64,000 bases of DNA. Source: Dehalococcoidia bacterium. GTDB lineage: Bacteria > Chloroflexota > Dehalococcoidia > UBA6926. The position numbers and the translations under genes were made by a program. Numbering within the stretch: the stretch's first letter is position 1; every line of letters begins with the position of its first letter. The notes below the pieces were generated by a model. The model was not told the origin of the DNA. It did not search any database and was given only the letters and a program-made list of their open reading frames with translations. The DNA lies in the NCBI GenBank assembly GCA_963665385.1, contig OY762213.1:1833211-1897210 (forward strand). Direction: 5' to 3'. Positions 11,750-48,630 of this stretch are shown here, piece by piece.

Positions 11750-12952
11750 TTAGCGCGGCAGGCCAAGTCCCCGCTGCGCAATAATCTGTCGCTGAACCTC
11801 AGTAGTGCCGCCGGCGACGCTGAGCGTACCCGACATGAATGCCCGGTTATTCAGGAATCCTTCGTTCGGCATGTCGATGCCCTCCTGCGTCGGCAGCAGA
11901 TTGCCGTACTCCTGGAGGCCACGGGCAAGAGTCTTCATCGTCTTCTGATACTGCACGTCCGCCCAGAGCTTGCTCATGGAGGATTCCTTCTGTGGGATCT
12001 CCCCTCTGCTCTGCATCCAGCCGACGCGGTAGGCAATCATACGCAGGGTCTCAATCTCGATGCGGAGATTCGCCATCTGGTGGCGGAACGGCGCGTCATC
12101 CAGCGGGCTGAAGCCACGTGTGGCCTTCAATTCGCGGACAAACGCGATGTATTCCTCGATTTGGCGCTGCATTGTAGCAGGGGCCTGAATGTTGGAGCGC
12201 TCAAAGGAGAGCGTCGTCATGGCCGTATACCATCCACGGTTTTCCTCACCGAGGATGTAACGGGCGGGAACGCGCCAGTTCTCCATGAATAGCTCATCCC
12301 AGCGATGGCGTCCGAGCGCATCAGGAATCTTTCGTACCTGTACACCCGGCATGAACTCACCGTCCGCGTCCTTTAGAGGTGCGAGGAGGTAGGTGATGCC
12401 ACGGTGCTTGGGGGCATCCGGGTCCGTCCGCACCAGGATGTGAATCCAAGGGTTGCGGTATGTACCCCAGATCTTCTGGCCGCTGATGATATAGTCATCG
12501 CCGTCACGGACGGCGCGTGTCTTGAGAGACCCGAGATCGGAACCCGCATCCGGCTCCGAAAAGCCCTGCGAGAACTCGAGGTCGGCGTTCGCGATACCCG
12601 GCAGAAATTCATCCTGCATCCACTTGGGAGCCGCCAGCATCAGGACTGGAGCAACCAGACCGCCGCCGAGCGATGCAGGCGCCCCGGCGTAGGACATGGC
12701 CTCACGGTAGGCCAGTTGCACCTCAATTGAGGCATCTTGCCCACCAAACTCACTGGGCCAGTGCATTGTCCACCAGCCTTTATTGACGAGCTTCTTCTCA
12801 AACTCGTTGACGGCTTCTTCAGCCTCGTCGACCTGGTGGTGCCAGTTGACGAGGATCTGCATATCCCAATTGCCGGGCTCCCACTCTTTGCGGGTGAATT
12901 CGATGGCGTCTTGCTGTATCTGCTGCGCCTCAGGCGTGAATCGGAAGTCCAT
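11750..12952 (-). CDS. Acyl-CoA dehydrogenase-fold paralog (subfamily A)
   Basis: 400 aa, MDFRFTPEAQ...AGGTTEVQRQIIAQRGLGLPR. It lies in tandem with the previous paralog. Confidence 0.85.
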   Translation of the reverse strand: MDFRFTPEAQQIQQDAIEFTRKEWEPGNWDMQILVNWHHQVDEAEEAVNEFEKKLVNKGWWTMHWPSEFGGQDASIEVQLAYREAMSYAGAPASLGGGLVAPVLMLAAPKWMQDEFLPGIANADLEFSQGFSEPDAGSDLGSLKTRAVRDGDDYIISGQKIWGTYRNPWIHILVRTDPDAPKHRGITYLLAPLKDADGEFMPGVQVRKIPDALGRHRWDELFMENWRVPARYILGEENRGWYTAMTTLSFERSNIQAPATMQRQIEEYIAFVRELKATRGFSPLDDAPFRHQMANLRIEIETLRMIAYRVGWMQSRGEIPQKESSMSKLWADVQYQKTMKTLARGLQEYGNLLPTQEGIDMPNEGFLNNRAFMSGTLSVAGGTTEVQRQIIAQRGLGLPR

Positions 12953-13072
12953 GTGGACAATCCCCCCTCTTGTTTATCCCACAAAGCGCCGCGTGACGAC
13001 CAGCGCGCCGCCTCCCTAACTCAACCCGTGAACGATAGCATGCACGCAATGCGGCGTAAAGCCTTAGGTAGT

Positions 13073-14257
13073 TCACGGCACAGGGCCTACGACGACGTAC
13101 TTCCTATCCACAGTCCTATCCGCAACCGGCAGCACCTGTACGACGACCCTGGTCAGCCCAACAACCTCGCCATTCGCGTCAAAGCTGTAGTTCTCACCAA
13201 TAGCGCCACTCCACGTGATCTCATACAGGCAGTCGCGAAAGCCGTCAGCGTCTCGATCATCGCCCGTCTGTCTCAGACACTCGGCAGCAATATAGATATC
13301 GTCATACGCAGATCCCAGGTGCCACGGCAACGTCACATAGTCATAGCGATCCCTAAAATCCGCGAGGACCTGCTGTGCCTTTTCGTTATCAGGGTCGAGG
13401 TCGGCCGTGATAGCTTTCACGCCTGTCGCGGCCTCGCCAGCAATCTCCAATGCTGTTGTCCCGACCGACACCGTTTCCGCGTATATCGGGCCCGTATAGC
13501 CGAGTTCCCTGGCTTGCTTCATGATTGAGCCTGCTGAGAATTCAGATTGGGGAGCTATATGTATGGCATCCGGGTTGGACTGGAAGAGCTTCGTCAGATG
13601 CACCCTAAAGTCAATGGTGTCCGACTGATAGCGCTCCGCAGCCGCAACTTGGCCGCCATGCATTTCGAATTGAGCAACTGAGGTCCGCCGAACGCCCTCC
13701 GCGTAGTCTGTGGTCTCCGTGATTGTTGCAAGGGTGCGGATTCCATCTTCCCATAAGGCATTGCCAGTAACAATTCCAACCTGTACATCGCTTATCTGCG
13801 TCCTGAATATATAGTCGCCGGCATTGGCAATATCAGGGTTGCTTGCGAGACCGGAGAAGAGAATCACGCCGTCAGCTTCTGCCAGGGGCGCAACGGCAAG
13901 CATGGCACCACTACATGAGGGGCCCAGGATGATCTTCATACCATCAGCGCGGGTGAGTTTGTTGTATGCGGCGATCGCATCCTGAGCAGCGCATTTTGAA
14001 TCCTCGACAACAAACTCGAGCGGGCGGCCATCAATTCCGCCTGTGGCATTAATCTCGTCGGCAGCCATCTGCTTTGCCTGGCTTGCCACCGTGCCGTACG
14101 TCTCACCGGGACCGGTCAGCGACTCCATAACACCAATCGTGAAAGGCTCCGCTTGCTGACCCTCATCTGTCGATGTACAAGCGAGAAGGGTAAGCGCCAG
14201 CGGAAGCAAAGAGAGAGCGACACTTATTTTCGCGAGCTTACCGATAGGGAGATTCAT
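13073..14257 (-). CDS. Branched-chain amino acid-type ABC transporter substrate-binding lipoprotein (periplasmic binding protein type I, LivJ-like)
   Basis: The likely start is MNLPIGK at 14257. A lipoprotein signal ends in the lipobox LLAC. GVMESLTGPGETYG...AADEINATGGIDGRPLEFVVEDSKC is typical of the Leu/Ile/Val-binding family. No permease or ATPase genes are adjacent. Confidence 0.82.
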   Translation of the reverse strand: MNLPIGKLAKISVALSLLPLALTLLACTSTDEGQQAEPFTIGVMESLTGPGETYGTVASQAKQMAADEINATGGIDGRPLEFVVEDSKCAAQDAIAAYNKLTRADGMKIILGPSCSGAMLAVAPLAEADGVILFSGLASNPDIANAGDYIFRTQISDVQVGIVTGNALWEDGIRTLATITETTDYAEGVRRTSVAQFEMHGGQVAAAERYQSDTIDFRVHLTKLFQSNPDAIHIAPQSEFSAGSIMKQARELGYTGPIYAETVSVGTTALEIAGEAATGVKAITADLDPDNEKAQQVLADFRDRYDYVTLPWHLGSAYDDIYIAAECLRQTGDDRDADGFRDCLYEITWSGAIGENYSFDANGEVVGLTRVVVQVLPVADRTVDRKYVVVGPVP

Positions 14258-23228: not shown

Positions 23229-23330
23229 GACCTTTACCCCCTTGCCTCTCCGTCGCCTCGCAACGGTACGCGGTCATGATACAGCGCGCGGGCACAGTGT
23301 GCGTGAGCTATCTCACGTGAAGCACGTCCG

Positions 23331-23858
23331 TTAGCCGTCTTCAGTGGGAAAAGGGTCGTTCACGCTCCTCCGGCCTTGCAGTTCAGTTATCGAGACATCC
23401 GAGAAGGTCTTTCCGTTCCAGAGCGTCTTAACGTATGTCAGCACATCAATGATCTCTTGCCCCGTCAGCTTGTCTCTAAATGCTGGCATTCCGCTCTTGA
23501 AATCAGGCTGACTCGGAATTGCTCCGCCATCCCTCACGATCCGATATAGCAGTCCGTCGGAGTGGTGCCACGTGTGGCCGTCTCCATTCAGGGGTGGGGG
23601 GTTCAGCGTGCCGTCCGCGTTAGCGATTTGCCAGTCTGGATGACCCTGCCCCGCGGCCCCGTGGCACTCGGCGCAGTTTTCGGCGAACGTCTGCATTCCT
23701 GCCTGAATGAGAGTTGCGGAAGATGACTGCGTATCGCTATCCGGCGGGCCTTCCACAAAGCCGGTTGAGCAGCCCGCGCTGACGATGGCAAGAATAATCC
23801 CTACCAGAATTGAGCCCGTCGACATCCTTGCAGGAGTCCTGGGTCTTCTAGTCCACAC
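23331..23858 (-). CDS. Class I c-type cytochrome, probable lipoprotein
   Basis: A single heme-binding CAECHG (CxxCH). The N-terminal signal has Cys (ILAIVSAGCSTG) and there is a distal Met ligand region. The start may be the internal MSTGSIL at 23825. Confidence 0.75.
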   Translation of the reverse strand: MWTRRPRTPARMSTGSILVGIILAIVSAGCSTGFVEGPPDSDTQSSSATLIQAGMQTFAENCAECHGAAGQGHPDWQIANADGTLNPPPLNGDGHTWHHSDGLLYRIVRDGGAIPSQPDFKSGMPAFRDKLTGQEIIDVLTYVKTLWNGKTFSDVSITELQGRRSVNDPFPTEDG

Positions 23859-24017
23859 GGCAAGCGCTAGCTGTCATTGACCCTTTTTGACTTGTTTCTG
23901 TTCCAACTGATGCCGGAATACAAGTACGACGCGCTCATCATACAGCGCGCGGGCGAGGCGTGGGGAACGTCAATCTCGGGCCGGGCGCGTCCGTTAGCCG
24001 TCCTTAGCAGGAAAAGG

Positions 24018-25970
24018 CTATTCCTCCAGCGATCCGTCGGCGCAGAACGGAGCGCCAATTTGCCCATACGGGGGTGTGCTGCTGTAGGAAGAAAAAATCT
24101 GGCTCCTTATAGAGTCCGCTACGCATCCGGTGAGCGAGTTGCCGCCGAGTCTGAGGCGGCGCACGTAGGACATTCCGCTCAGGTCGGGTATGGGGCCGGT
24201 GAACTGATTATTCTGGAGGGTGACGACAATATAGGGCATGTCGCCGAACCAGTCGGGTATGTCGCCAGTCAGCTGGTTGTTTTCCAGAGCGACGGTATGC
24301 ACGAGGTTGGCGTTCTTGAGTTCGTCGGGGATCTTCCCGGTCAACCGGTTGTTCTGCAGGAAAAGACCGCCCAGTGCCTTGATGTTGCCCAACTCAGGAG
24401 GAATACTCCCGCTGAATTTGTTATCTGAAAGATGGAAGTGCTCGGTGTTCAGATTGCCGTATTCCGGAGGGATCGGACCGGTGAACTGGTTGTTGTTCAG
24501 GTGGATCCCCCACGCCTTGGTCAGGTTGCCCAGGCTGGCCGGAACACTTCCCGTCAGCCGGTTGTAGGACACGGACAGGTCAAAGAGGTTCGTCAGGTTG
24601 CCGATTTCGGACGGCACTCCTCCGGTCATGCCGGTTCTTTCGAGATTCAGCGTTACAAGCTCGGTCAGATTGCCTAGCACTGCGGGAATCGTGCCAGTTA
24701 GATTGTCATGGCCAAGTTCCAGGTTGACCACGCGTCGCGGATCACCACCAATTGTGACGCCGTGCCAAGCTCCGAGGGCAGTCTCCGCGTTCCACGTTGC
24801 CAGAGCGTTGCCCGCCGGGTTCAGCACATCCCTGGCCGCCCACAGGGCCCCGCAGTCGGCAACTAGTTCAGGCTTGTCGTCCGGGTTGCGGATGATAACG
24901 CCGTTGTCACACGGGGTCGTGATCTGGATTCGTATGGACTTTCCCGGCCCGCAGTCATCGCCCTCACAGGCATACACCTTTGCCACCCACTTGCCGAAGT
25001 GCGGCACCAGGACGCTGGCACTTGATGCCTTTACGGTTACACCCTCGTTCAGCTGCGTGCCGGGCGCATCCTCACGCCAACGCACCAGGTAGGAGTCCGC
25101 TCCATCTACATCGTCCCAGTCCAGCGACACGTCCAGTGAGCCGACCTCGGTACTTGCCTGCAATGCAGAGGGCTTGGCCGGCGCCAGGTCTACCTGGAAC
25201 ACTTTCAGTTCGCTCTCTCCGCAGTTGTCACCGTCACAAGCCTTCACGCTCACGGTCCACGTGCCGTCACGATCGACCGTAAAAGCCGCACTCGAGGACC
25301 GGACATCCTTCTGGCCGTGAAGCCGTATGTCCCCAATTTTTCGCCAATAGACCGAGTACCGGGTTGCGCCGCCTACGTCGTCCCAGTCCAACGTCACGTC
25401 TAGCGAGGCGGGACTGGTAGTGACCTGGAGCCCTGTGGGTTTGGCCGGGACTGGCTCCAGGATAGGTGTAGGTATCAGTAAAGGTAGCCTTGATATTGGC
25501 TTGGGAGGAGGCTCGGGCGTGGGTGCAGGCGTGGCTACGGGTGTCGATTCGGGCGCTGAGCGAACCGCGATGCGCTTGGCGGCGGGTCTTCCGCAGCCCG
25601 CGTCATTGCAAGCTTGGACCCGCACCACCCATTCGCCGTAATCGTCCACGGCAACTGAGGCCGCGGAAGATCTTATGGTGATCCCTTCGTTCAGCCGGTT
25701 GCCCGGTCCTGCCACCCGCCAGCGCACTCGATATTCCGATGCCCCGTCAACGTCGTTCCAGTCCACCGACACATTCAGCGAGCCGACCGTAGCAGTATCC
25801 TGCAACCCTGTCGGCCTGGCCGGAGGTTGTATTCCTTCCTCAGCCCCGGCGGGATTGTCACTCCAGATCAAGGCCGCGGCGGCGAAAAGGACTAGTAGCA
25901 GCGCGGCAAGGCAATACGGCAGCCATCGGCGCATCAACCTGATGCGTGCGTATGAGACGGGACGACTCAC
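24018..25970 (-). CDS. Secreted/membrane-anchored protein with three fibronectin-III-like repeats and a plant-type leucine-rich-repeat (LRR) domain
   Basis: An N-terminal hydrophobic helix. Three roughly 90-aa repeats (PAKPTGLQ...SLDV(T/S)(L/V)DWDDV(D/G)GA..Y.V.WR...). Then 8-9 tandem 24-aa LRRs of consensus LxxLxLxxNxLTGxIPxxLGNL, and a C-terminal Cys pair. Confidence 0.8.
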   Translation of the reverse strand: MSRPVSYARIRLMRRWLPYCLAALLLVLFAAAALIWSDNPAGAEEGIQPPARPTGLQDTATVGSLNVSVDWNDVDGASEYRVRWRVAGPGNRLNEGITIRSSAASVAVDDYGEWVVRVQACNDAGCGRPAAKRIAVRSAPESTPVATPAPTPEPPPKPISRLPLLIPTPILEPVPAKPTGLQVTTSPASLDVTLDWDDVGGATRYSVYWRKIGDIRLHGQKDVRSSSAAFTVDRDGTWTVSVKACDGDNCGESELKVFQVDLAPAKPSALQASTEVGSLDVSLDWDDVDGADSYLVRWREDAPGTQLNEGVTVKASSASVLVPHFGKWVAKVYACEGDDCGPGKSIRIQITTPCDNGVIIRNPDDKPELVADCGALWAARDVLNPAGNALATWNAETALGAWHGVTIGGDPRRVVNLELGHDNLTGTIPAVLGNLTELVTLNLERTGMTGGVPSEIGNLTNLFDLSVSYNRLTGSVPASLGNLTKAWGIHLNNNQFTGPIPPEYGNLNTEHFHLSDNKFSGSIPPELGNIKALGGLFLQNNRLTGKIPDELKNANLVHTVALENNQLTGDIPDWFGDMPYIVVTLQNNQFTGPIPDLSGMSYVRRLRLGGNSLTGCVADSIRSQIFSSYSSTPPYGQIGAPFCADGSLEE

Positions 25971-40007: not shown

Positions 40008-42596
40008 ATGACGACAAACGCGAATGAACGGTTCACCTTGCTTCCCCGGTCCGTGAGGCCGTCACACTACAAGCTGGAACTCACGCCGGATCTGGAAAAT
40101 GCTGCATTTACGGGGTCGGTGGCTATTGACGTTCTTGTGACGGAAATCACACAGCAGATTGTTTTAAACGCAATTGAGCTCGATTTAGGCTCTGCAACGT
40201 TCACCCCGCGCGGCGGAGAGGCCACGGCATCGACGGAGATCACGTACGACGAGGAGGCTGAGACTGCCACGATCAGTTTTGGCGAGGCTCTGCCCGTCGG
40301 TGCGGGGACACTTGAGATTCCGTTCACGGGGATCCTGAATGATCAGCTGCATGGGTTCTACCTGAGCACGTTCCGGGACAAGGAGGGGGTTGAGCGACGG
40401 ATGGCGGCGACGCAGTTCGAGGCCTCGGACGCGCGGCGGTGCTTCCCGTGCTGGGACGAGCCGGCGGTCAAGTCCACGTTCCAGGTCGACTTGATCATTC
40501 CCGAGGGATTTTCTGCGATCTCCAACACGTTGGAGTCCGCGCCGGAGCCTGAGGACGGGGGCAGGCAGCGGGTCAGCTTCCCCGCCACGCCGATCATGTC
40601 CACCTATCTCCTGGCGTTCATCGTGGGGGAGATGGACAAGATTGAGGCGCGCTCGGCCAACGGCACGCTTAACCGCGTGTGGGCGACCGTCGGTCAGGCA
40701 GAACTTGGGCAGTTTGCGCTGGAGACCTCCGTGCGTCTGCTGGACTACTACAACGACTATTTCGGCGTCGATTACCCTTTGGAGAAGCTGGACCACATCG
40801 CCCTGGCCGACTTTGCGGCGGGCGCGATGGAGAACTGGGGGGCAGTGACCTACCGCGAGGTGGCTCTGCTCTTCGATCCGGCAAGCTCCTCGCCCGGCAC
40901 GCGGCAGCGCATCGTTGAAATCATCGCTCATGAGATGGCGCACATGTGGTTCGGCGACCTTGTGACGATGGCGTGGTGGAACGACCTGTGGCTAAACGAG
41001 AGCTTTGCGTCTTGGATGGCGGCCAAAGCAACGCACACCCTGTTCCCCGATTGGGCAATCTGGACGCAGTTCATCGCCACGGACGTCGCTCCCGGCATGA
41101 GCCTGGACGGGCTGGAAAACTCCCATCCAATCGAGTCGGAGGTGCGGAATCCCAACGAGGTCAGCCAGCTATTTGACGCGATCAGCTATGAGAAGGGCGC
41201 CTCCATTCTGCGGATGCTGGAGCAACACATCGGCCCAGACGCTTTCCGCAACGGTTTGAACGGTTACATGACCGCGTTTGCCTACTCCAACGCGGAGGGG
41301 GCGGATCTGTGGCGCGCGATGGGGGACGCCTCCCAACAAGACATCCCCGGCATGATGGACTCCTGGGTCAAACAGGTTGGCTATCCCGTCGTCTCGGCAG
41401 AAACGACGCGCGGTGACTCCGGTGCGACGGTTTCGCTGACTCAGCGACGCTTCCTCTACTCCGGGCCGAATGACGATGAGACGCTGTGGCACGTGCCCGT
41501 GCGCATCACGACGCAGGGGAGTGAAGATGAGGCGAGGGCCCTGTTCACCGACCGGACGGAATCCATCGAGGTTCCGGCAGCTTCCGGGGACGGATGGATC
41601 AAGGTCAATGCCGGAGGAGCGGGGTTCTATCGCGTCGGCTACCAGCAAGACGAGCTTGACCGGTTGATCGCCGCGGTCCGGACGGGCGAATTGTCCGCGC
41701 CCGATCGGCTGACGCTGCTGGAGGACACCTACGCTCTTGCCCGCGCCCGCCATATTCCCGCCCGCAACTACCTTGAACTGGCGCAGGCATATGTAGACGA
41801 CGAGGACTTCAGCATCTGGGCGGCGATGGCATCGCAGCTCGGCGCGATTGAGGCGCTGTCCCGCAATGAGCCGTACTTGGAACGCTACCAGGAGTTCGCC
41901 CGAGGGCTAACGCAGACCGTCGCCGGCAAGGTCGGTTGGGAGCAGCCGGAGAACGAGGCGCACCTGCGAACGCTACTGCGGGCGGTAGCGCTGAGCGCGG
42001 CGGGCGGCTTCGGCGATGAAGCAGTGTTGTCCGAGGCGGCGGCGCGATTCGCGCGTTTCCTTGAGGATGAGTCATCGCTGCGGCCGGATCTGCGGGCCGT
42101 CGTCTACAACCTGACCGCCGATCAGGGCAACGACGAGATGTTCGAGACGATGAAGCGGCTGGAGCGCGAGTTTGATCTGCAGGAGGAGAAGGTCCGCATG
42201 CAGATGGCGCTCACGCAGTTCAGTCAGCCGGAACTCCTGCAAAGGACGCTCGAGATGTCCGTCGACCAGGACCAGATTCGCGTGCAGGACGCGCCACGGC
42301 TCCTAATGGGGGTGGGCGGCAATCTGCGGGGGCTGACGCTGGCATGGGAATTCATGAAGGACAATTGGCCTGAGATCGAGCGCCGTTACGCGGGCGGAGG
42401 ATTCGCGATCATGCGGCTCGTGTCCATCACGGGGGCGTTTGCGACAGCGGAGGCGGCGCAGGAGGTGCGCTCATTCTTCGAGGAGCACCCGACGCCGTCC
42501 GCGACGCGGGCCATTCAGCAGTCGCTGGAACGCATCGAACTCAACCGACTATGGCTGGAACGAAACCGGGGAGAACTCGCGGAGTGGCTGGGGTAG
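40008..42596 (+). CDS. pepN: Aminopeptidase N (M1 family)
   Basis: 862 aa. GAMEN at AAGAMENWG and zincin HEMAHMWFGDLVTMAWWNDLWLNESFA (HExxH-x18-E) are present. The ERAP1-like C-terminal domain is recognisable. Confidence 0.93.
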   Translation: MTTNANERFTLLPRSVRPSHYKLELTPDLENAAFTGSVAIDVLVTEITQQIVLNAIELDLGSATFTPRGGEATASTEITYDEEAETATISFGEALPVGAGTLEIPFTGILNDQLHGFYLSTFRDKEGVERRMAATQFEASDARRCFPCWDEPAVKSTFQVDLIIPEGFSAISNTLESAPEPEDGGRQRVSFPATPIMSTYLLAFIVGEMDKIEARSANGTLNRVWATVGQAELGQFALETSVRLLDYYNDYFGVDYPLEKLDHIALADFAAGAMENWGAVTYREVALLFDPASSSPGTRQRIVEIIAHEMAHMWFGDLVTMAWWNDLWLNESFASWMAAKATHTLFPDWAIWTQFIATDVAPGMSLDGLENSHPIESEVRNPNEVSQLFDAISYEKGASILRMLEQHIGPDAFRNGLNGYMTAFAYSNAEGADLWRAMGDASQQDIPGMMDSWVKQVGYPVVSAETTRGDSGATVSLTQRRFLYSGPNDDETLWHVPVRITTQGSEDEARALFTDRTESIEVPAASGDGWIKVNAGGAGFYRVGYQQDELDRLIAAVRTGELSAPDRLTLLEDTYALARARHIPARNYLELAQAYVDDEDFSIWAAMASQLGAIEALSRNEPYLERYQEFARGLTQTVAGKVGWEQPENEAHLRTLLRAVALSAAGGFGDEAVLSEAAARFARFLEDESSLRPDLRAVVYNLTADQGNDEMFETMKRLEREFDLQEEKVRMQMALTQFSQPELLQRTLEMSVDQDQIRVQDAPRLLMGVGGNLRGLTLAWEFMKDNWPEIERRYAGGGFAIMRLVSITGAFATAEAAQEVRSFFEEHPTPSATRAIQQSLERIELNRLWLERNRGELAEWLG

Positions 42597-42679
42597 GCAG
42601 TGCCTACTGCCCAAGGTCGCGATCAGCATTGACTGGGCTGTGGGGATAGTTCGCCGCGTTACGGTGTTTGGTGGCTCAT

Positions 42680-43137
42680 TGAGGCTTTAGATTCCTCGGC
42701 TGCGCTCGGAATGACATGGGGGGCGCGGGGGTGACGGTGGGGGGGATGACGGGCGACCCTTCGGCAGGCTCAGGGTGAGCGGGGGGGCCTCGTGTCATTC
42801 TGAGGGGCGCAGCCCCGAAGAATCTATCGTCATGATCGGCTGCCCAATGGAGGCTTTGGATTCCTCAGCTGCGCTCGGAATGACAGTGTAGGCGCCCGGA
42901 ATGACATGGGGGGCGCGGGAATGACGGTGGGAGTGCGCCCTTCGACAGGCTCAGGGTGAGCGGGGGGGCCTCGTGTCATTCTGAGGGGCGCAGCCCCGAA
43001 GAATCTACGGACATGATCGGCTGCGCCATGGAGGCTTTGGATTCCTCGGCTGCGCTCGGAATGACGGTGGGGGGCGGGAGAGGGGATTTCTTGGGGTTGG
43101 CGCTACGGTTTGGGCTATGGCAATTCTGTTGATTCTC
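42680..43137. repeat. Array A of REP/MITE-like units: about 175-bp period, each unit with roughly 30-bp terminal inverted repeats and internal GGAATGAC sub-repeats
   Basis: GAGGCTTT(A/G)GATTCCTCGGCTGCGCTCGGAATGAC recurs at 42680, 42851 and 43031. The inverted partner GTCATTCTGAGGGGCGCAGCCCCGAAGAATCT occurs at about 42805 and 42975. The tail motif GGCGCTACGGTTTGGGCTATGGCAATT lies at 43101-43127. Confidence 0.85.
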
Positions 43138-43245
43138 GTTAATGGTTATAGAACATCACCGCACTTATAGCCAGGAGTTACACATTGGTTACGATTTGTA
43201 TGTTATCTTGGCTAATAGTGTCGCCTATATATAGGTGAGGAACTT

Positions 43246-43563
43246 GTGCCGAAAGCCGCGCTCGGGGGACAACCCTTTGGAGGTGCACTGATGAAGGGGA
43301 CGGCAGCCATTCTGAGGTCACATATCGGGGTGGGGTCACTCCGGATACTTGTGCCTGTGTTGCTGGTATTGGCCGCAACAGGAGCCTTTCTCTTTGCAGC
43401 CAGTCCTGCCGCAGCGGAACCCATCGATGAAATAGTCGACCTGAATATTCCCATAGAGGTGGAGGAGTACCGGGACGCGCCGAAACGCGTGCTGCGGCAG
43501 GGTCCAGGGGACTCAGTCGTCCACGACCCTGCTGAGCAACACGGGGCAGACACCTACTTTTGA
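43246..43563 (+). CDS. Small secreted hypothetical protein (signal peptide); possibly the 5' part of one frameshifted gene with the next ORF
   Basis: MKGTAAILRSHIGVGSLRILVPVLLVLAATGAFLFAASPAAAEP is a signal peptide. It is preceded by an AT-rich promoter-like stretch at 43130-43250. TGA lies at 43561-43563. Confidence 0.5.
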   Translation: MPKAALGGQPFGGALMKGTAAILRSHIGVGSLRILVPVLLVLAATGAFLFAASPAAAEPIDEIVDLNIPIEVEEYRDAPKRVLRQGPGDSVVHDPAEQHGADTYF

Positions 43564-43564
43564 T

Positions 43565-44401
43565 TTGTCGTTCGACAGCGACCGCGCTCAGGCGTTCACC
43601 ACGGGCAGCAATAGCGCAGGCTACACGCTGACCAGCGTTGATCTGAGTCTGAAATCCACCCATACGCAGGCCATCTTCACGGTGGCCATCCACGCAGGCT
43701 CGTCCGCAGCACCGGTGGCCACGAGCCTCGGCACGCTCACGATGACGACGGCACTGACGAGCACAGGCAGCCTCGTGGGATTCGACGCATCCGGGACTGG
43801 CATCGAACTCGCCGCCAACTCGACGTACTGGGTGGTGATCGACGTGTCCGTCACCAGCGCCACCACTGCATTCCAGGTAACGACTTCGACGGATGAGGAT
43901 TCGGCCGACGGCTGGAGCATCGCGAACACCCACCGCAAGGGGGCCAACACTATCTCGGCCGCCATCCTGCTCCGCGTCAACGGCTTTGCGAAGACCTCGA
44001 CGATAGACCCCCTCTCTCAGCCGCCGCGCGCGCCAATTACAGTTACATACACCAATGCGAACGGCGAGGAAGAGACAGTCGAAATCAGAGCGGCTTCCGC
44101 GGAACGCGATACTCTCTACAGCTTCTTCTACGATTCGTGCTCTCTCCAACGGTCGGCAACGACCCTGCGCGACTACAGCTGGCGCAACGCGGATGGACAC
44201 CTGATGCAGGCCAAGAACGGCTGGAAGTATGTGGAGGTACAGAATTCCAAGGGTGAGGTCACAGGCACCAGGCGACAGACGTTGGATGAGTGCGCCAGTC
44301 ACGGCATGTACTTGAGACAGCAGAATTGCGCCAACGAGGACTGGCGTGACCGAAATCCACACCTCCTTAATTCATCGTGTCCGACGTATCGGACGTGGTG
44401 A
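43565..44401 (+). CDS. Hypothetical Ser/Thr-rich beta-type protein with a Cys-containing C-terminal domain; TTG start or continuation of the previous ORF after a +1 shift
   Basis: 278 aa with no ATG or GTG start. The +1 frame is open from 43457 and reads ...QGTQSSTTLLSNTGQTPTFDLSFDSDRAQ..., in the same compositional style. The C-terminus holds five Cys residues plus two Trp (...WRDRNPHLLNSSCPTYRTW). Confidence 0.45.
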   Translation: MSFDSDRAQAFTTGSNSAGYTLTSVDLSLKSTHTQAIFTVAIHAGSSAAPVATSLGTLTMTTALTSTGSLVGFDASGTGIELAANSTYWVVIDVSVTSATTAFQVTTSTDEDSADGWSIANTHRKGANTISAAILLRVNGFAKTSTIDPLSQPPRAPITVTYTNANGEEETVEIRAASAERDTLYSFFYDSCSLQRSATTLRDYSWRNADGHLMQAKNGWKYVEVQNSKGEVTGTRRQTLDECASHGMYLRQQNCANEDWRDRNPHLLNSSCPTYRTW

Positions 44402-44530
44402 CGCAACTGGTAGCTGCAAGGAGACTGCGTCTCAAGCCCAGTAGTCCGGCAGAGGCGCAGGGGTGGTACGGCTGGCAGGGGCGCCGACATCCTGGCCCTC
44501 CCTCTTGATGGGGGCGGGGATGCTGCGGTT

Positions 44531-44950
44531 GGCGTTACGGTGGTTGGCTGGCGCATCGGGATTCAGATTCCCGCCTGCGCGGGAATGACGGTGTGTGGGG
44601 CGTTACGAGGTTTGGTTGCGCAATTGAGATTTTAGATTCCTCGGCTGCGCTCGGAATGACAGTGTAGGCGCTCGGAATGACATGAGGACGGAGGGAGCCT
44701 CGTGTCATTCTGAGGGGCGCAGCCCCGAAGAATCTACGGACATGATTGGCTGCGCAATGGAGGCTTTGGATTCTTCGCTACGCTCAGAATGACAGTGTAG
44801 GCGCGGGAATGACGGAGGGCGGCGGGGGTGACGGTGGGGGGCGGGTTGTGGCCTGCGGGCCACGCGTGGATTCCGGCCTTCGCCGGAATGACGGGGGGCA
44901 CGGGAATGCCGGTGGGTGGGTGGGAATGGCGCCGAGGGTGTTGGGAATCT
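44531..44950. repeat. Array B of the same REP/MITE-like family, in direct orientation relative to array A
   Basis: A full unit at about 44626-44755 has AGATTCCTCGGCTGCGCTCGGAATGAC and its inverted partner CTCGTGTCATTCTGAGGGGCGCAGCCCCGAAGAATCTACGGACATGAT. There are many GGAATGAC(G/A) sub-repeats and GGATTCCCGCCTGCGCGGGAATGACGG-type palindromes. The GGCGTTACG(G/A)GGTTTGG motif is shared with the array A tail. Confidence 0.85.
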
Positions 44951-44960
44951 AGCCCCACGA

Positions 44961-45096
44961 AGGACACGGCATTCATCAGCAGGACGCCGAGCACGGCAAC
45001 ACCGCGGATTAAATCAAGGCTGAGAATCCGTTCCGATTCATTGACCGGGCCGCGGCCGGCCTCATCAGTGGTTGCTTGTGGCTGATTGTCAGTCAC
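44961..45096 (-). pseudogene. N-terminal remnant of a membrane protein gene truncated by repeat array B
   Basis: The ORF from 45096 starts with the plausible N-terminus MTDNQPQATTDEAGRGPVNESERILSLDLIRGVAVLGVLLMNAV, a TM helix. The frame then runs straight into repeat-derived sequence (...IPAKAGIHAWPAG...). Confidence 0.3.
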
Positions 45097-45102
45097 TAAC
45101 TA

Positions 45103-46533
45103 TTACGCGTACAGGCTGAGGCGGCCTTTAGCGAGAACGTCACCGACGTGTTTGCTGATGGTCTGGAGCATGGCGAAATCATCTTCGCCAACGAATGTGA
45201 CGGCCTTGCCCGCGTTGCCGATGCGGCCGGTGCGCCCAATGCGATGGATGTATTCCTCAAGGTTGCCGGGCATGTCGTAGTTGATAACGTGCGAGATCTC
45301 GGGGATGTCCAGTCCGCGTGAGGCAACGTTGGTGGCGACAAGCACCTTGAGTTCTCCGGAGCGGAATGAGCGCATCACGGCCTCGCGCTGGTTCTGCCGC
45401 ATGCCGCCGTGGATTGGCTCCACACGAATGCGGGCCCGCTGCAGACGCCGTGCCAACCGGTCCACTCCGACCTGCGTCCGGCAGAAGATCAGCGTCTTCT
45501 CGCCATCCAGGTCAGTGCGGAGTACCTCTTCCAGGCCGGCCAGCTTGTCCTGGGCAGCAACCTCGTAGTAGAGCTGTTCAATCGTGTCGGCAGCCCCTGA
45601 CTCCTCGCCAATCCCGATATGAATCGGATCGCGCAGGAATCGTTCAATCATGCGTCGAATAAAAGACGGCACCGTTGCGGAGAAGAGCGCCGTCTGTCGG
45701 GCACGTGGCGTGGCGCGGAGGATGCGGATCATATCCTCGGCAAAGCCGATGTCCAGCATCTGGTCCGCCTCATCGAGGATGGCGACCCGGATGTTATTCA
45801 GCTTGAGAGTGCCGCGCTGCATGTGGTCCTGCACACGCCCGGGCGTACCGACAATGATCTGCGGGGTTTCCTGCAGGGCCTTCAGCTGCACCTCGATCTT
45901 TTGCCCCCCGTAGAGGGTGACGACCTTCAAGCCGCGGTGCTTTGCCAGGCGGCGCAGCTCACCGGTGACCTGTACGGCGAGTTCCCGCGTCGGTGCAAGA
46001 ACGATGCCCTGCACCTCGCGGCGTGTCGGATCGAGCAGTTCCACCATCGGGATACCGAACGCGGTTGTCTTGCCTGTGCCCGTCTGGGCACGACCGACTA
46101 CGTCACGCCCCTCGAGCATGACGGGGATGGCTTCCACCTGGATTGGGGTGGGGTCTTCGTATCCCATGTCGTCGAGCGCCAGGCGAATGGGCTCGGACAC
46201 GGTGACGGTACCGAAAGTCTTGTCTCGTTCGAATGGCCCGGCCTGCAAGTCAATTGTCGGGGCGGCCTTGCGTTGACGCTCGCGGGGCTCAGATGATCCG
46301 TTTCGGGACGGTTGCTCCCCGTGGCCGTTATTCTGCGCCGGCCTGTCCTTGCGGCGGCGGCGCGGCTTTCTGCGTGCGGGAGCGCCGTCAGGGCGATCCA
46401 ACGTTGGGGTTGCAGTTCGCACGGAGGGACTCATTGGAGAGTCGATTGGGGACGGTGAAATGGGGGGAAGGGTTACTGTGGATGCCGTCGGGGACGGCGG
46501 GGCCGACGTGCGGCCTAAGATTTTTCGAAGCAC
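45103..46533 (-). CDS. DEAD-box ATP-dependent RNA helicase with an Arg/Pro-rich N-terminal extension
   Basis: Q-motif and Walker A AQTGTGKT. DEAD at ILDEADQMLDIGF, SAT, HGGMRQNQRE and HRIGRTGRIGNAG are all present. The first about 100 aa are basic and low-complexity, so the start is uncertain. Confidence 0.9.
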   Translation of the reverse strand: MLRKILGRTSAPPSPTASTVTLPPISPSPIDSPMSPSVRTATPTLDRPDGAPARRKPRRRRKDRPAQNNGHGEQPSRNGSSEPRERQRKAAPTIDLQAGPFERDKTFGTVTVSEPIRLALDDMGYEDPTPIQVEAIPVMLEGRDVVGRAQTGTGKTTAFGIPMVELLDPTRREVQGIVLAPTRELAVQVTGELRRLAKHRGLKVVTLYGGQKIEVQLKALQETPQIIVGTPGRVQDHMQRGTLKLNNIRVAILDEADQMLDIGFAEDMIRILRATPRARQTALFSATVPSFIRRMIERFLRDPIHIGIGEESGAADTIEQLYYEVAAQDKLAGLEEVLRTDLDGEKTLIFCRTQVGVDRLARRLQRARIRVEPIHGGMRQNQREAVMRSFRSGELKVLVATNVASRGLDIPEISHVINYDMPGNLEEYIHRIGRTGRIGNAGKAVTFVGEDDFAMLQTISKHVGDVLAKGRLSLYA

Positions 46534-46650
46534 AAATTCCTCTTAGATAAGTTGGCCGTCGAACGCCCGTGGCGATACTCGCTCAACTTGGTGCGATGTC
46601 GTGTACTGAGCCCCTGGTCGGGGCGGATACCATTCTGTCCAACAGGACGC

Positions 46651-47013
46651 CTAGTAGCGGTTGTTGGCACTATGGTTCCTGAAGCAGTCGGAGCAATAGA
46701 CTGGCCGATCGCCACGCGGCTGGAATGGCACTTCCGCCTCCTTACCGCAGTCGGCGCAGGTGACGGAGTACATCCGCCGCTCCCGCCTTTCGAAGTTGCC
46801 AGCGGGCGCCTGGCCCGAGGATGGCCCACCGGAGGTGTAGGTACCGCCGACGTAACCGCCTTCGCGGTCGCGCTTGCGGTTTGCTCGGCAGTCCGGGCAT
46901 CGGGTGGGTTCACGTGTGAACCCTTTGCTTGCGTAGAATTCCTGCTCACCCGCTGTGAAAACAAACTCATTGGAGCAATCACGACACGCGAGTGTCTTGT
47001 CGGCCATTGTCAT
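46651..47013 (-). CDS. Zinc-ribbon protein (zf-trcl-like, two CxxC...CxxC modules)
   Basis: 120 aa. CRDCSNEFVFTAGEQEFYASKGFTREPTRCPDCR is followed by a second module CADCGKEAEVPFQPRGDRPVYCSDCF. Confidence 0.65.
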   Translation of the reverse strand: MTMADKTLACRDCSNEFVFTAGEQEFYASKGFTREPTRCPDCRANRKRDREGGYVGGTYTSGGPSSGQAPAGNFERRERRMYSVTCADCGKEAEVPFQPRGDRPVYCSDCFRNHSANNRY

Positions 47014-47412
47014 ACTAGGTCTCTCCCTTATCTTCCTGATTCTTCCTGCGATCCCGCCTTACATACGCAAACAGGCCGGGATCTGCTGCCTGCACACGCG
47101 TCGGCCATGGTGATACTCACGGTTGCAGCGCCTACAGGTACTGGAGTGAATGAAAGCCGACTACTAGATGATGAATGTGAGCTAGAGTGCGGTAAAAGAT
47201 TCCCCTGGTTCTTGATTCGGCTCCATTGTATCAGATTTCGCCCCCTGCAGGCGGCAGACCAATACGGGCTTCCCCGTTTCTTGCCCCTTTGCCGCGCTTT
47301 TACTACAGTGAGCGCAGGATTCGAGAAAAGCGAGTACCGAAACGGCACAGGGTTTGACGGCGGATGGTTCACTGCGACCTGCTCACCAGTAGGGCGCATG
47401 GAGGAAAAGGCA

Positions 47413-48630
47413 ATGGACTTTCGATTTTCAACTGAGAATGAACAGCTCCGGCAAGAGGCGATAGAGTTTACGCGCCGCGAGTGGGACTCCAAGGGCTTGG
47501 GCGACGGACAGGGCATCTACTACGCCCTGTCATGGGACCATGAGAACCATGAGGTTGAGTCGTTAATCAGCGGCTTCGAGAAGAAGCTGGTGGACAAGGG
47601 CTGGTGGACGATGCACTGGCCGACTGAATTCGGCGGCAAGGGCGCTGACATTGAGACCCAGATGGCGTACCGCGAGGCGATGGTCTATGCAGGCGCGCCG
47701 GCGACGCTTGGCGGCGGTCTCGTCGCACCGGTTCTTATGGTGCACGGCACGGACGAGCAGAAGGAGTATTTCCTTCCCCGCATCGCGAACGCGGACATCT
47801 CGTACATCTCGCAGGGATTCTCAGAGCCGGATTCCGGTTCGGACCTGGCAAGCTTGCAGACGCGCGCCGTCCGTGACGGCGACGACTATGTCATCAATGG
47901 CCAGAAGATATGGAGCACGTACCGCGCGGAGTTCATCCATGTTCTCGTTCGTACGGATCCGGAGCAGCCGAAGCACCGAGGTATCACATACCTGCTGGCC
48001 CGGTTGAAGGACGAGGACGGCAACTACCTCCCCGGCATCAAGGTGAACGCGATCCCCGACGCGCTTGGCCGTCACCGCTGGGATGAGGTGTTCTTTGAGG
48101 ACTGGCGTGTGCCGTCGAACAACATCATCGGCGAGGAGAATCGCGGCTGGTATGCCGCGATGACCACGCTCAGCTTTGAGCGCTCCAACATTGAGGGCCC
48201 TGCCATGCTCATCCGAATCATGGAGGACTTCATCGACTACGCCAAGAACGTACGGCAATACGGCGACAGCCCGTTGGATAACCCCGTTGTTCGACACCAG
48301 ATCGCCAATCTGCGACTCGAGATTGAGGCGATGCGGATGTTGTCGTACCGGGTCGGGTGGATGCAGAGCCAGGGCGAGATCCCCGTGCGCGAGGCGTCCA
48401 TGACCAAGTTCTGGGGGGACGAAATCACGCAGAAGGTGTACCGCTACTTCTCTCATGTACTGGGTGAATACGGGCAGGTTCTGCCGACGACGGAGCTGCC
48501 GCTCAAGCTGCCGGTGGACGGGTTCCTGAACTCCAACGCACACAGTACAATCGGCATCAGCATCGCGGGCGGCACGACAGAGGTCCAGAAGAACATCATC
48601 GCTCAGCGAGGTTTGGGACTGCCGCGGTAG
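47413..48630 (+). CDS. Acyl-CoA dehydrogenase-fold paralog (subfamily A)
   Basis: 405 aa from ATG 47413, with a GGAGGAAAAGG RBS. MDFRFSTENEQLRQEAIEF...IAGGTTEVQKNIIAQRGLGLPR. The ORF-track 692-aa version is an artefact of an open upstream frame. Confidence 0.85.
   Translation: MDFRFSTENEQLRQEAIEFTRREWDSKGLGDGQGIYYALSWDHENHEVESLISGFEKKLVDKGWWTMHWPTEFGGKGADIETQMAYREAMVYAGAPATLGGGLVAPVLMVHGTDEQKEYFLPRIANADISYISQGFSEPDSGSDLASLQTRAVRDGDDYVINGQKIWSTYRAEFIHVLVRTDPEQPKHRGITYLLARLKDEDGNYLPGIKVNAIPDALGRHRWDEVFFEDWRVPSNNIIGEENRGWYAAMTTLSFERSNIEGPAMLIRIMEDFIDYAKNVRQYGDSPLDNPVVRHQIANLRLEIEAMRMLSYRVGWMQSQGEIPVREASMTKFWGDEITQKVYRYFSHVLGEYGQVLPTTELPLKLPVDGFLNSNAHSTIGISIAGGTTEVQKNIIAQRGLGLPR

Follow-up and report, generated by a model that had tools for sequence, protein, structure and literature searches.

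We have analysed a 64,000-nt stretch of DNA from a Dehalococcoidia bacterium (positions 1,833,211 to 1,897,210 of contig OY762213.1, assembly GCA_963665385.1; called the window below), and in particular the interval between a pepN-like aminopeptidase gene and a DEAD-box helicase gene. In this interval, a gene for a secreted protein, referred to here as the cargo, is enclosed by two arrays of short hairpin repeats and followed by the remnant of a DUF418 gene. A sequence-only reading had described the cargo as a cassette with its own AT-rich promoter, bracketed by REP/MITE-like repeats that may have mediated its insertion, with disruption of a resident membrane-protein gene. The comparisons presented here lead to a partly different view. 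The segment 42612-44965 appears to be what this strain carries in a recombination hotspot, at which the 3′ ends of pepN and of a DEAD-box/DUF418 operon converge, and the repeats have the sequence characters of CGTC/TGTC-tagged palindromes of the dRS3/NTS/"Ssn-related motif" (SRM) class, with head-to-head dimers and interleaved small repeats.

The Locus

The features of the interval and its flanks are listed below in window coordinates. Loci in other genomes and contigs are denoted by L numbers, and ORF stands for open reading frame.

40008-42596, plus strand: pepN-like M1 aminopeptidase, left flank (Pfam Peptidase_M1_N, Peptidase_M1 and ERAP1_C; orthologues at 78-99% amino-acid identity)
42597-42664, plus strand: spacer after pepN, running into the first leader (93% nucleotide identity to L131 up to 42664; homology to L130 stops at 42611)
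42652-43137, plus strand: left hairpin array, hairpins CGTC/TGTC-tagged and with a C after the palindrome
42690-42715, 42859-42884 and 43040-43065: 26-mer hairpins A1-A3 of the left array
42757-42780 and 42938-42961: B hairpins of the left array
42794-42824 and 42975-43005: 32-nt inverted partners C1-C2 of the left array
42871-42940: half-site repeats of the left array, 21-nt period
43069-43137: terminal spacer/leader copy of the left array, closing with the truncated hairpin arm GATTCTCG
43138-43290, plus strand: AT-rich upstream region, putative promoter region (Shine-Dalgarno GGAGG at 43279-43283 and, after a gap of 7 nt, the ATG at 43291)
43246-43563, plus strand: 5′ part of the cargo gene (ORF1), with the signal peptide MKGTAAILRSHIGVGSLRILVPVLLVLAATGAFLFAASPAAA followed by EP and a linker; out of frame past 43500
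43500-43502, plus strand: frameshift site, GGG where GG is expected
43502-44401, plus strand: 3′ part of the cargo gene in frame 2 (beta-sandwich at about 43511-43990, C-domain at about 44039-44398)
44402-44476, plus strand: 3′ flank carried with the cargo (83% nucleotide identity to L003)
44491-44921, plus strand: right hairpin array, opening with a CCCTC..GGGG module and then a leader
44563-44590: NTS-like hairpin of the right array, with a dRS3 core ATTCCC-N8-GGGAAT at 44567-44586
44635-44660 and 44704-44734: 26-mer A4 of the right array and its partner C3
44769-44793: variant A5 of the right array, where half-sites are also present
44848-44863: GTGGCC..GGCCAC hairpin of the right array
44866-44893: SRM-matching hairpin of the right array
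44922-44960, minus strand: internal DUF418 fragment encoding EIPNTLGAIP (matches L008 13884-13925 and L005 13820-13868)
44959-45096, minus strand: 5′ remnant of a DUF418 (YeiB-like) gene, 46 codons, start 7 nt after the helicase stop
45103-46533, minus strand: DEAD-box helicase, right flank (Pfam DEAD and Helicase_C; synteny in relatives)

Comparison with Relatives

The interval from pepN to the DEAD-box gene was compared in nine relatives by means of their pepN orthologues (amino-acid identity of pepN to that of the window in brackets).

L130 (90.7%): intact DUF418 gene, its stop 7 bp from the pepN stop
L004 (90.9%): nothing between (40 bp)
L009 (78%): 240 bp between
L008 (84%): two DUF433/DUF5615-type modules and DUF418
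L005 (88%): 94-aa ORF, SocA_Panacea, DUF418 and 241-aa ORF
L006 (87%): hairpin; methyltransferase fragment and 217/219-aa genes; four hairpin units of about 193 nt; DUF433; hairpin
L007 (90.5%): inverted NTS-like hairpins around an orphan 267-aa secreted dockerin-like gene (12620-14030)
L131/132/133 (98.6%): short array and restriction-modification remnant, no cargo

Ten genomes thus have eight different contents at this position. In blastn comparisons the window-specific segment extends over 42612-44965 relative to L130 and over 42605-45098 relative to L004, and the cargo gene is missing at the locus in all nine of the related genomes examined. The earlier proposal that the cargo is an addition at this site is therefore borne out, and according to L131 it was added inside an array that already existed. 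Arrays recur at the hotspot in L006, and hairpins coincide with breakpoints in both L006 and L007. In L007, the synteny beyond the hairpins switches to RecR/YbaB/DnaX (RecR, not DEAD), an apparent rearrangement breakpoint. No tRNA was found in the window and no integrase near the region, and an island of the tRNA/integrase type is thus not supported.

The pepN of the window groups with sequences whose annotation is Dehalococcoidia or Chloroflexota. The closest relative, L131, is of the same species and corresponds to JGI PetF_10000069 (GenBank LXNJ01000010.1), and LXNJ00000000 is a metagenome of the sponge Petrosia ficiformis (PMC5099237). Its sequence is 93% identical to that of the window up to 42664 and again from 44898 on, with the DUF418 remnant and the array tail in common. 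It has two hairpins only; one is a variant of the 26-mer, 25 nt long, and the other is the NTS-like hairpin found at 44563-44590 of the window. Between the two breakpoints it carries a decayed restriction-modification remnant (12713-13684), made up of a 97-aa methyltransferase N-fragment (PADLOC MTase_II, E 5e-7) and a 218-aa protein. This remnant is 71% identical in nucleotides to a cassette in L006 (12899-14415); in the two relatives the methyltransferase fragments measure 61-97 aa, and the partner of about 218 aa has a weak DUF4145 match. The L131 cassette breaks the first leader while the window cargo breaks a later hairpin, and two different cassettes thus sit at two points of the same array.

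The DUF418 gene (PF04235, about 390 aa) is intact at this position in L005, L008 and L130 (386-392 aa). In the window it is represented by codons 1-46, which align to these intact genes, and by a 13-codon internal piece, joined to the 5′ remnant by an internal deletion of about 690 bp; the remnant has no Pfam match. It was noted before that the right array abuts a truncated gene start. The truncated gene is indeed the DUF418 remnant, but the last 29 nt or so that had been assigned to the array (44922-44950) are DUF418 coding sequence and not repeat. This same fragment holds GGGAATGG and GGGAATCT, of which the first is similar to a hairpin arm with its tag (GGGAATGAC) and the second to the other arm and tail in reverse complement, perhaps as microhomology where array and gene join, or by chance.

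L131 lacks the cargo although it agrees with the window in its boundaries, in the truncated DUF418 and in having a short array, and both the array and the disruption of the gene are therefore older than the split of the two strains. The suggestion that the cargo insertion disrupted the membrane-protein gene can thus be dismissed, the truncation being the older event. The cargo and the expansion of the array, on the other hand, are specific to the window lineage.

Hairpin Arrays

Eight matches to the pattern GATTCY-N-RGAATGAC occur in the window, compared to 0.01 expected, and all of them are located within 42690-43065 and 44635-44793. Two further hairpins with perfect stems, at 44566-44591 and 44869-44894, bring the number of units of the GATTCY..RGAATGAC class to ten, confined to 42690-43065 and 44566-44894. 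The sequence GGAATGAC has 12 copies in the window vs 2.5 expected, 10 of them in the array region, and the CCCTTCGACAGGCTCAGGGTGAGC module and the GGCGYTACGG..TTGG leader are restricted to this region within the window. Tandem Repeats Finder and a repeat finder yield a unit period of 169-181 nt for the left array, a 68-nt repeat unit that opens the right array, and half-sites repeated every 21 nt at 42871-42940. These results confirm the two arrays of units of about 175 bp with inverted partners that had been seen from the letters. The GGCG(Y)TACGG..TTGG motif described as their tail is also real, but it sits before the hairpin, as a leader. The GC skew is about +0.3 over both arrays.

All ten hairpins keep GTC on the 5′ side of the palindrome and a C on its 3′ side. 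The terminal, unpaired tag reads CGTC in three and TGTC in seven, and the tail at the untagged end is CCA at 42857, 43038, 44767 and 44867, the other tails being CTA or CTG. A stem of 8 bp and a loop of 4 nt characterise the class I hairpins (44567-44588 and 44870-44891). Class II, to which the other eight copies belong (the 26-mer, the 32-mer and one variant), has 5 bp, a 2x2 internal loop and then 2-5 bp; the internal loop is a tandem G.A, with the tagged strand reading G.A/A.G. Three head-to-head heterodimers (42794-42884, 42975-43065 and 44704-44793) have a conserved 34-nt spacer.

Folded as single-stranded DNA (ssDNA), the perfect hairpins have z values of −2.7 to −4.3 and the 32-mer one of −2.8. 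The 26-mer and its 32-nt inverted partner, located about 135 nt apart, form one long hairpin with a dG of −34 kcal/mol (z −3.06). The units have common linkers, which points to growth by tandem duplication rather than by targeted insertion. A comparison of the region with Rfam gave nothing at the gathering threshold nor at E<=1, i.e. no known RNA family.

Beside full hairpins, at 42871-42940 and 44800-44916, there are furthermore iterations of the hairpin half next to the tag (GTCATTCC with the 5′ arm), with a period of about 20-21 nt. The same iteration is seen in the unrelated contigs L010, L022, L045, L048, L050, L126 and L129. These runs are strongly G-rich on one strand and possibly prone to form G-quadruplexes. 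The literature yielded no published mechanism for such half-site iteration.

Repeat Class

Chenal et al. (2025) extended dRS3 to the 28-nt NTS, CGTCATTCCCGCGMAVGCGGGAATCYRG, and showed that the GIY-YIG nuclease SsnA, whose substrate is ssDNA and not RNA, binds the single-stranded NTS and cleaves a few nucleotides upstream of it (PMC11893778). Cleavage needs the three bases that precede the palindrome, and binding needs the C that follows it. The same study defined the degenerate SRM pattern HGTCWYN(0-2)YYVSBRHN(0-5)WNVSBRGN(0-2)RNCYNB, and found that ssn genes are mostly flanked by SRMs, that NTS clusters adjoin genes of host-interaction membrane proteins, that SRM-rich genomes are enriched among symbionts, and that the motif affects recombination in Neisseria (PMC11893778).

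The hairpin at 44563-44590 (minus strand), CGTCATTCCCGCGCAGGCGGGAATCTGA, agrees with the NTS at 27 of 28 positions, with one mismatch, and the one at 44866-44893 (minus strand) is a strict match to the SRM pattern; shuffled sequence gives 0.63 SRM per window. Copies of the NTS with at most one mismatch are also present in L006 (four) and L131 (one). The GTC tag and the C that follows the palindrome, present in all window hairpins, and their clustering beside a secreted, host-interaction-type gene in an animal symbiont are as in the NTS/SRM-Ssn system. The window departs from that system in that Chloroflexota (Dehalococcoidia) goes unmentioned in PMC11893778, that most copies are the tandem G.A internal-loop variant, which escapes the SRM pattern, and that no ssn gene is seen in the 64 kb.

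The repeats also agree with the CGTC REPs of Di Nocera et al. (2013), which have a CGTC, TGTC or CCTC tag, a stem of 8-9 bp opening with A-T pairs, a loop of 4-5 nt and a tail that is mostly CCA, occur predominantly as head-to-head dimers, and have no dedicated transposase (PMC3733652). CGTC-1 in Neisseria corresponds to dRS3, and the superfamily is listed in five phyla, Chloroflexi not among them, with clusters being rare outside Neisseria and Wolbachia (PMC3733652). The window shares with CGTC-1 the tag, the 8-bp stem beginning with A-T and T-A, the 4-nt loop, the CCA/CTR tail, the head-to-head dimers with conserved spacers and the lack of an adjoining transposase. It differs in its bulged class II stems and in its host, a member of the Chloroflexi. 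The earlier assignment to REP/MITE-like units is therefore replaced by membership in a published class, whose hairpins are dispersed elsewhere in the relatives. Single hairpins occur between housekeeping genes in L007 and others about 100 kb away on a conspecific contig (L040), which means that the family is not private to the pepN-DEAD locus.

At the level of the array, the closest counterpart is the NIME, an array of dRS3 and RS elements that Bentley et al. (2007) stated to be specific to Neisseria, and for which it was proposed that recombination has its end-points within the arrays and that genes flanked by arrays insert into those of the chromosome (PMC1797815). As in NIMEs, 20-bp hairpins of the ATTCCC-N8-GGGAAT type are parted by repeat blocks of 30-110 nt, the array length differs between strains, recombination end-points fall within the arrays, and a variable gene for a secreted protein lies next to the arrays, with a silent or defective copy enclosed by them in the way that pilS is in NIMEs. 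Unlike in NIMEs, the exact dRS3 core occurs only once in the window (44567-44586), the other hairpins being ATTCC/ATTCT variants, the spacers are G-rich half-site repeats and not low-GC RS elements, and no dRS3-targeting phage recombinase was seen. As the host is not a Neisseria, the window array is an analogue of the NIMEs and not a member. It is a NIME-like array in a phylum and a habitat from which the class had not been described before.

A number of other repeat types were considered. The REP, BIME and REPIN elements of E. coli and Pseudomonas are similar in that palindromes lie between convergent genes, form long-hairpin doublets and build mosaic clusters, but their REPIN tag is GTAG and not CGTC/TGTC. 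A phmmer search of 1.06 Mb, i.e. the window and the loci, found no RAYT/IS200-like gene, which is weak evidence given that the RayT and IS200 TnpA queries were unverified. Miniature inverted-repeat transposable elements (MITEs) were rejected because the units, although they contain inverted hairpins, share linkers and show no target-site duplication. By inspection, there are no R′/R″ core sites as in integron attC and no unique spacers as in CRISPR.

Identical copies of the non-coding 26-mer, GATTCCTCRGCTGCGCTCGGAATGAC, occur in at least 120 contigs from metagenomes, which have a GC content of 0.29-0.68 and unrelated flanks (for example L020 8923-8993, L034 2620-2685, L126 and L129, among L010-L129). 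It often lies beside other GATT(G/C)C..G(C/G)AATGAC hairpins, in inverted pairs, and beside iterated half-sites. In L019/L030, L069 and L085 it flanks on both sides a gene for a single-domain GIY-YIG protein of about 97 aa (PF01541, E 1e-12 to 1e-13; L019 205-564, L030 159-518, L069 773-985 and L085 7698-8078), which by the criterion of Chenal et al. would associate the class II hairpin with Ssn, albeit in other organisms. A search with the GIY-YIG protein gave 3251 matches, mostly of 96-98 aa among the matches listed; the window contig is not among the best 120 of the 3251, which is uninformative about ssn in this genome.

In lower-GC contigs (L016, L028, L049, L052, L056-L058, L091, L103 and L117), the 26-mer is a module of a larger MITE-like element that has the inverted-repeat ends AGAGGCTCTAACAAAACC...GGTTTTGTTAGAGTGCCT and a second hairpin, GGAGCCGCTTCGCGGG.

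Cargo Gene

ORF1 (43246-43563) and ORF2 (open from about 43457 to 44401) occupy different frames, and had been described as two ORFs. Our comparison shows that they are parts of a single gene with a +1 frameshift, caused by an extra G in 43500-43502. Deletion of one G at this position restores KRVLRQVQGTQSSTTLLSNTGQ, the family consensus, and the 400-aa protein P0002, which shares its contig of 1,991,504 bp with the window product P0001, aligns through ORF1 and then ORF2 without interruption. Frame 2 is open over 315 codons, with every family-invariant residue in place, including the four Cys of the C-terminal domain, for which five had been counted before. The ATG at 43291 is the likely start, since homologues begin at the matching residue, and the signal peptide, judged by eye, is of the Sec type.

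The AT-rich stretch upstream of the gene is confirmed, with a GC content of 0.475 at 43100-43299 as compared to about 0.65 in the flanks. However, a scan of the region for promoters of the sigma-70 type and for terminators found none, and the gene is a frameshifted paralogue, so the picture of a functional cassette with its own promoter is not supported.

It is correct that the protein has no Pfam match, but it is not without a family. A protein search gives at least 66 homologues, which define a Dehalococcoidia family of secreted proteins with loci in metagenome-assembled genomes of Dehalococcoidia and Tepidiformaceae. The signature consists of a signal peptide, a ..TLVSNTGQ..AQAFTTGSN..GYTL.. 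beta-sandwich, and a C-domain with four invariant Cys that ends in CPTYRTW; the window copy fits it, apart from the frameshift. Longer members have a SwmB repeat inserted between the two domains.

An AlphaFold2 model built with 41 family sequences (pLDDT 91) has a beta-sandwich at residues 1-160 and an alpha/beta domain at residues 177-296. Foldseek searches against the PDB return phage baseplate, capsid, CBM, collagen-binding and lectin-like domains, with weak global similarity (best E 6e-5, TM 0.39). The N-domain is thus predicted to be a lectin- or jelly-roll-like beta-sandwich, followed by an alpha/beta C-domain with the four invariant Cys.

The window contig carries four copies of the family, i.e. 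three intact paralogs and the frameshifted copy, which is the only one inside the window. The identity of the latter to P0002 is a mosaic, being high at the N-terminus (93-100%; ORF1 93%) and in the C-domain (86-96%) and lower in the beta-sandwich (43-66%). In L003, the sequence 3′ of family genes has 83% identity to the 75 nt past the cargo stop, which indicates that these arrived together with the gene. At two distant Dehalococcoidia loci the family forms tandem clusters, where a scan of the contigs found no hairpins. The large contigs of the relatives, two of which read as circular (suffix 'c'), are absent among the matches to the family, as opposed to the four copies on the window contig. 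This contrast between the near-complete closest relatives and the window genome is indirect, but it suggests that the family was acquired in the window lineage, in agreement with the horizontal acquisition put forward earlier.

Probable Course of Events and Alternatives

We consider it probable, with reasonably good confidence, that the arrays are NIME-like and of the NTS/dRS3 class, that they occupy a hotspot, and that the cargo was inserted into a pre-existing array and later inactivated. The ancestral arrangement would have been pepN and, in convergent orientation, DUF418 and DEAD. Truncation of DUF418 and a short hairpin array would have come next, a state shared with the P. ficiformis relative, and in the window lineage the array would then have expanded by tandem duplication. 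A 1.37-kb segment, consisting of the AT-rich upstream region, the secreted lectin-like paralogue and its 3′ flank, would have been inserted inside one hairpin, and the cargo gene would afterwards have been inactivated by a 1-nt insertion.

The junctions speak for this order. The left junction lies inside a hairpin arm, where the left spacer/leader copy runs to GATTCTCG and then gives way to the AT-rich cargo DNA. An intact spacer/leader copy that continues into a full hairpin lies 3′ of the cargo, and the spacer/leader of about 65 nt is thus duplicated around it. Insertion would have left this direct repeat on both sides, and it is the product expected if a molecule with one repeat copy recombined with the resident array. 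From the junctions and the analogy with Neisseria it is plausible that the repeats mediated or guided the insertion. By the same analogy, the hairpins may extrude in ssDNA, where a small GIY-YIG nuclease of the Ssn type, with its gene outside this locus, would bind and cut them. As portable homology and as sites of breakage, they would focus insertions, deletions and the exchange of genes on this interval.

It is important to note that several observations weigh against this account. Other cargo is present in L005 and L008 with zero hairpins, and L009 is likewise hairpin-free. Hairpins are thus not required for variability here, and the site must be variable for additional reasons; a possible one is that convergent gene ends tolerate insertions. 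The 26-mer alone folds weakly (z 0.26), and none of the eight class II hairpins fits the published SRM pattern. Neither the window nor about 200 kb of loci from the relatives contain an Ssn or GIY-YIG gene. The recombination route is deduced from one junction pattern, and the frameshift could be an assembly error.

The hairpin-free variants are also what one would expect if the arrays were passive, with hairpins piling up in dispensable DNA, the cargo arriving by unrelated illegitimate recombination, and its bracketing being coincidental. The lone hairpins between conserved housekeeping genes in L007 and the linkers common to the units, which indicate tandem duplication rather than targeted insertion, fit this explanation as well. 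It does not account for a cargo junction within a hairpin arm and a repeat unit duplicated around the cargo, for two cassettes at two points of one array in two strains, or for the hairpins at the breakpoints in L006 and L007, and the same motif influences recombination in the Neisseria experiments (PMC11893778); we regard it as unlikely. A second option is that the gene is functional, the frameshift being an assembly error or the 3′ part being expressed alone, and that the arrays serve as RNA stabilisers or insulators for pepN and the cargo. The error would amount to one base in a G-run, frame 2 has stayed open over its 315 codons with all invariant residues kept, and REPs located 3′ of genes have been proposed to act as RNA elements (PMC3733652). 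However, the assemblies of the relatives look long-read, as judged from ptg/ctg names with coverage, and an error in a 3-nt homopolymer is uncommon there; we infer that the frameshift is genuine. ORF2 by itself lacks a signal peptide, the orientation of the hairpins relative to the flanking transcription is not constant in L006 and L007, SsnA works on ssDNA and not RNA (PMC11893778), and terminator-like sites were not found in the region, which together make this option decidedly improbable.

A MITE, a composite transposon or an integron-like cassette, moved by a transposase or integrase that reads the inverted repeats, would explain why the arrays bracket the gene in direct orientation and why the 26-mer and 32-mer inverted repeats, about 135 nt apart, fold as one hairpin. 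Yet the window region has no transposase, integrase or tRNA, no target-site duplications are seen and the linkers are common to the units, attC R′/R″ core sites are not seen by inspection, and the CGTC REP class has no dedicated transposase (PMC3733652). This possibility is hardly credible. Lastly, the frameshifted paralogue in its NTS-like arrays might be a silent donor cassette and not just a dead gene, as the Dehalococcoidia counterpart of the Neisseria pilS copies in NIME arrays. Its ends, 86-100% identical to P0002, which on this view is the expressed paralogue, would serve as homology arms and its lectin-like middle, 43-66% identical, would supply the variation. We consider this a long shot.

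Other Features of the Window

A second variable site is located a few kb upstream, around hicB-like, MFS and pepN genes (L005 4704-7824, L008 1149-7844, L009 4757-8492 and L130 8112-9743). Depending on the relative, it contains an orphan gene of 543 aa, an ABC/FtsX pair or large surface proteins with Cadherin, Calx-beta or He_PIG domains, and it is empty in the window. Within 20 kb of the minus strand, at 10482-30854, there are seven paralogous genes for acyl-CoA dehydrogenases (395-422 aa), interleaved with a SBP_bac_5 solute-binding protein and a TPP enzyme. A 650-aa protein encoded at 24018-25970 (minus strand) has leucine-rich repeats, fn3 and a ChitinaseA_N-like domain, and is eukaryote-like, of the sponge-symbiont type. 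Just downstream of its gene there are two 33-nt direct repeats (23322-23354 and 23985-24017) that are 85% identical and 663 nt apart. The listed 692-aa ORF at 46552-48630 is artificially long because the frame happens to be open upstream; the true gene encodes a 405-aa acyl-CoA dehydrogenase and is found in all relatives. On the strand opposite to it, at 46651-47013, there is a gene for a 120-aa zinc-ribbon (zf_Tbcl) protein.

Conclusions

NTS and Ssn have been characterised mainly in Proteobacteria, and an NTS hairpin with 27 of 28 matching positions in an uncultured Chloroflexota sponge symbiont widens the range of this hairpin class. The tandem G.A internal-loop variant, which lies beside GIY-YIG genes in other contigs, is missed by the published search pattern. 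The relatives of the window constitute a natural series, from an intact gene through truncation with a short array to an expanded array with cargo, in which one can ask whether hairpins direct insertions. If the silent-cassette view were true, recombination controlled by the hairpins and Ssn would vary a host-interaction protein in a sponge symbiont. The locus supports the reported link of these motifs with animal symbionts and with variable host-interaction genes.

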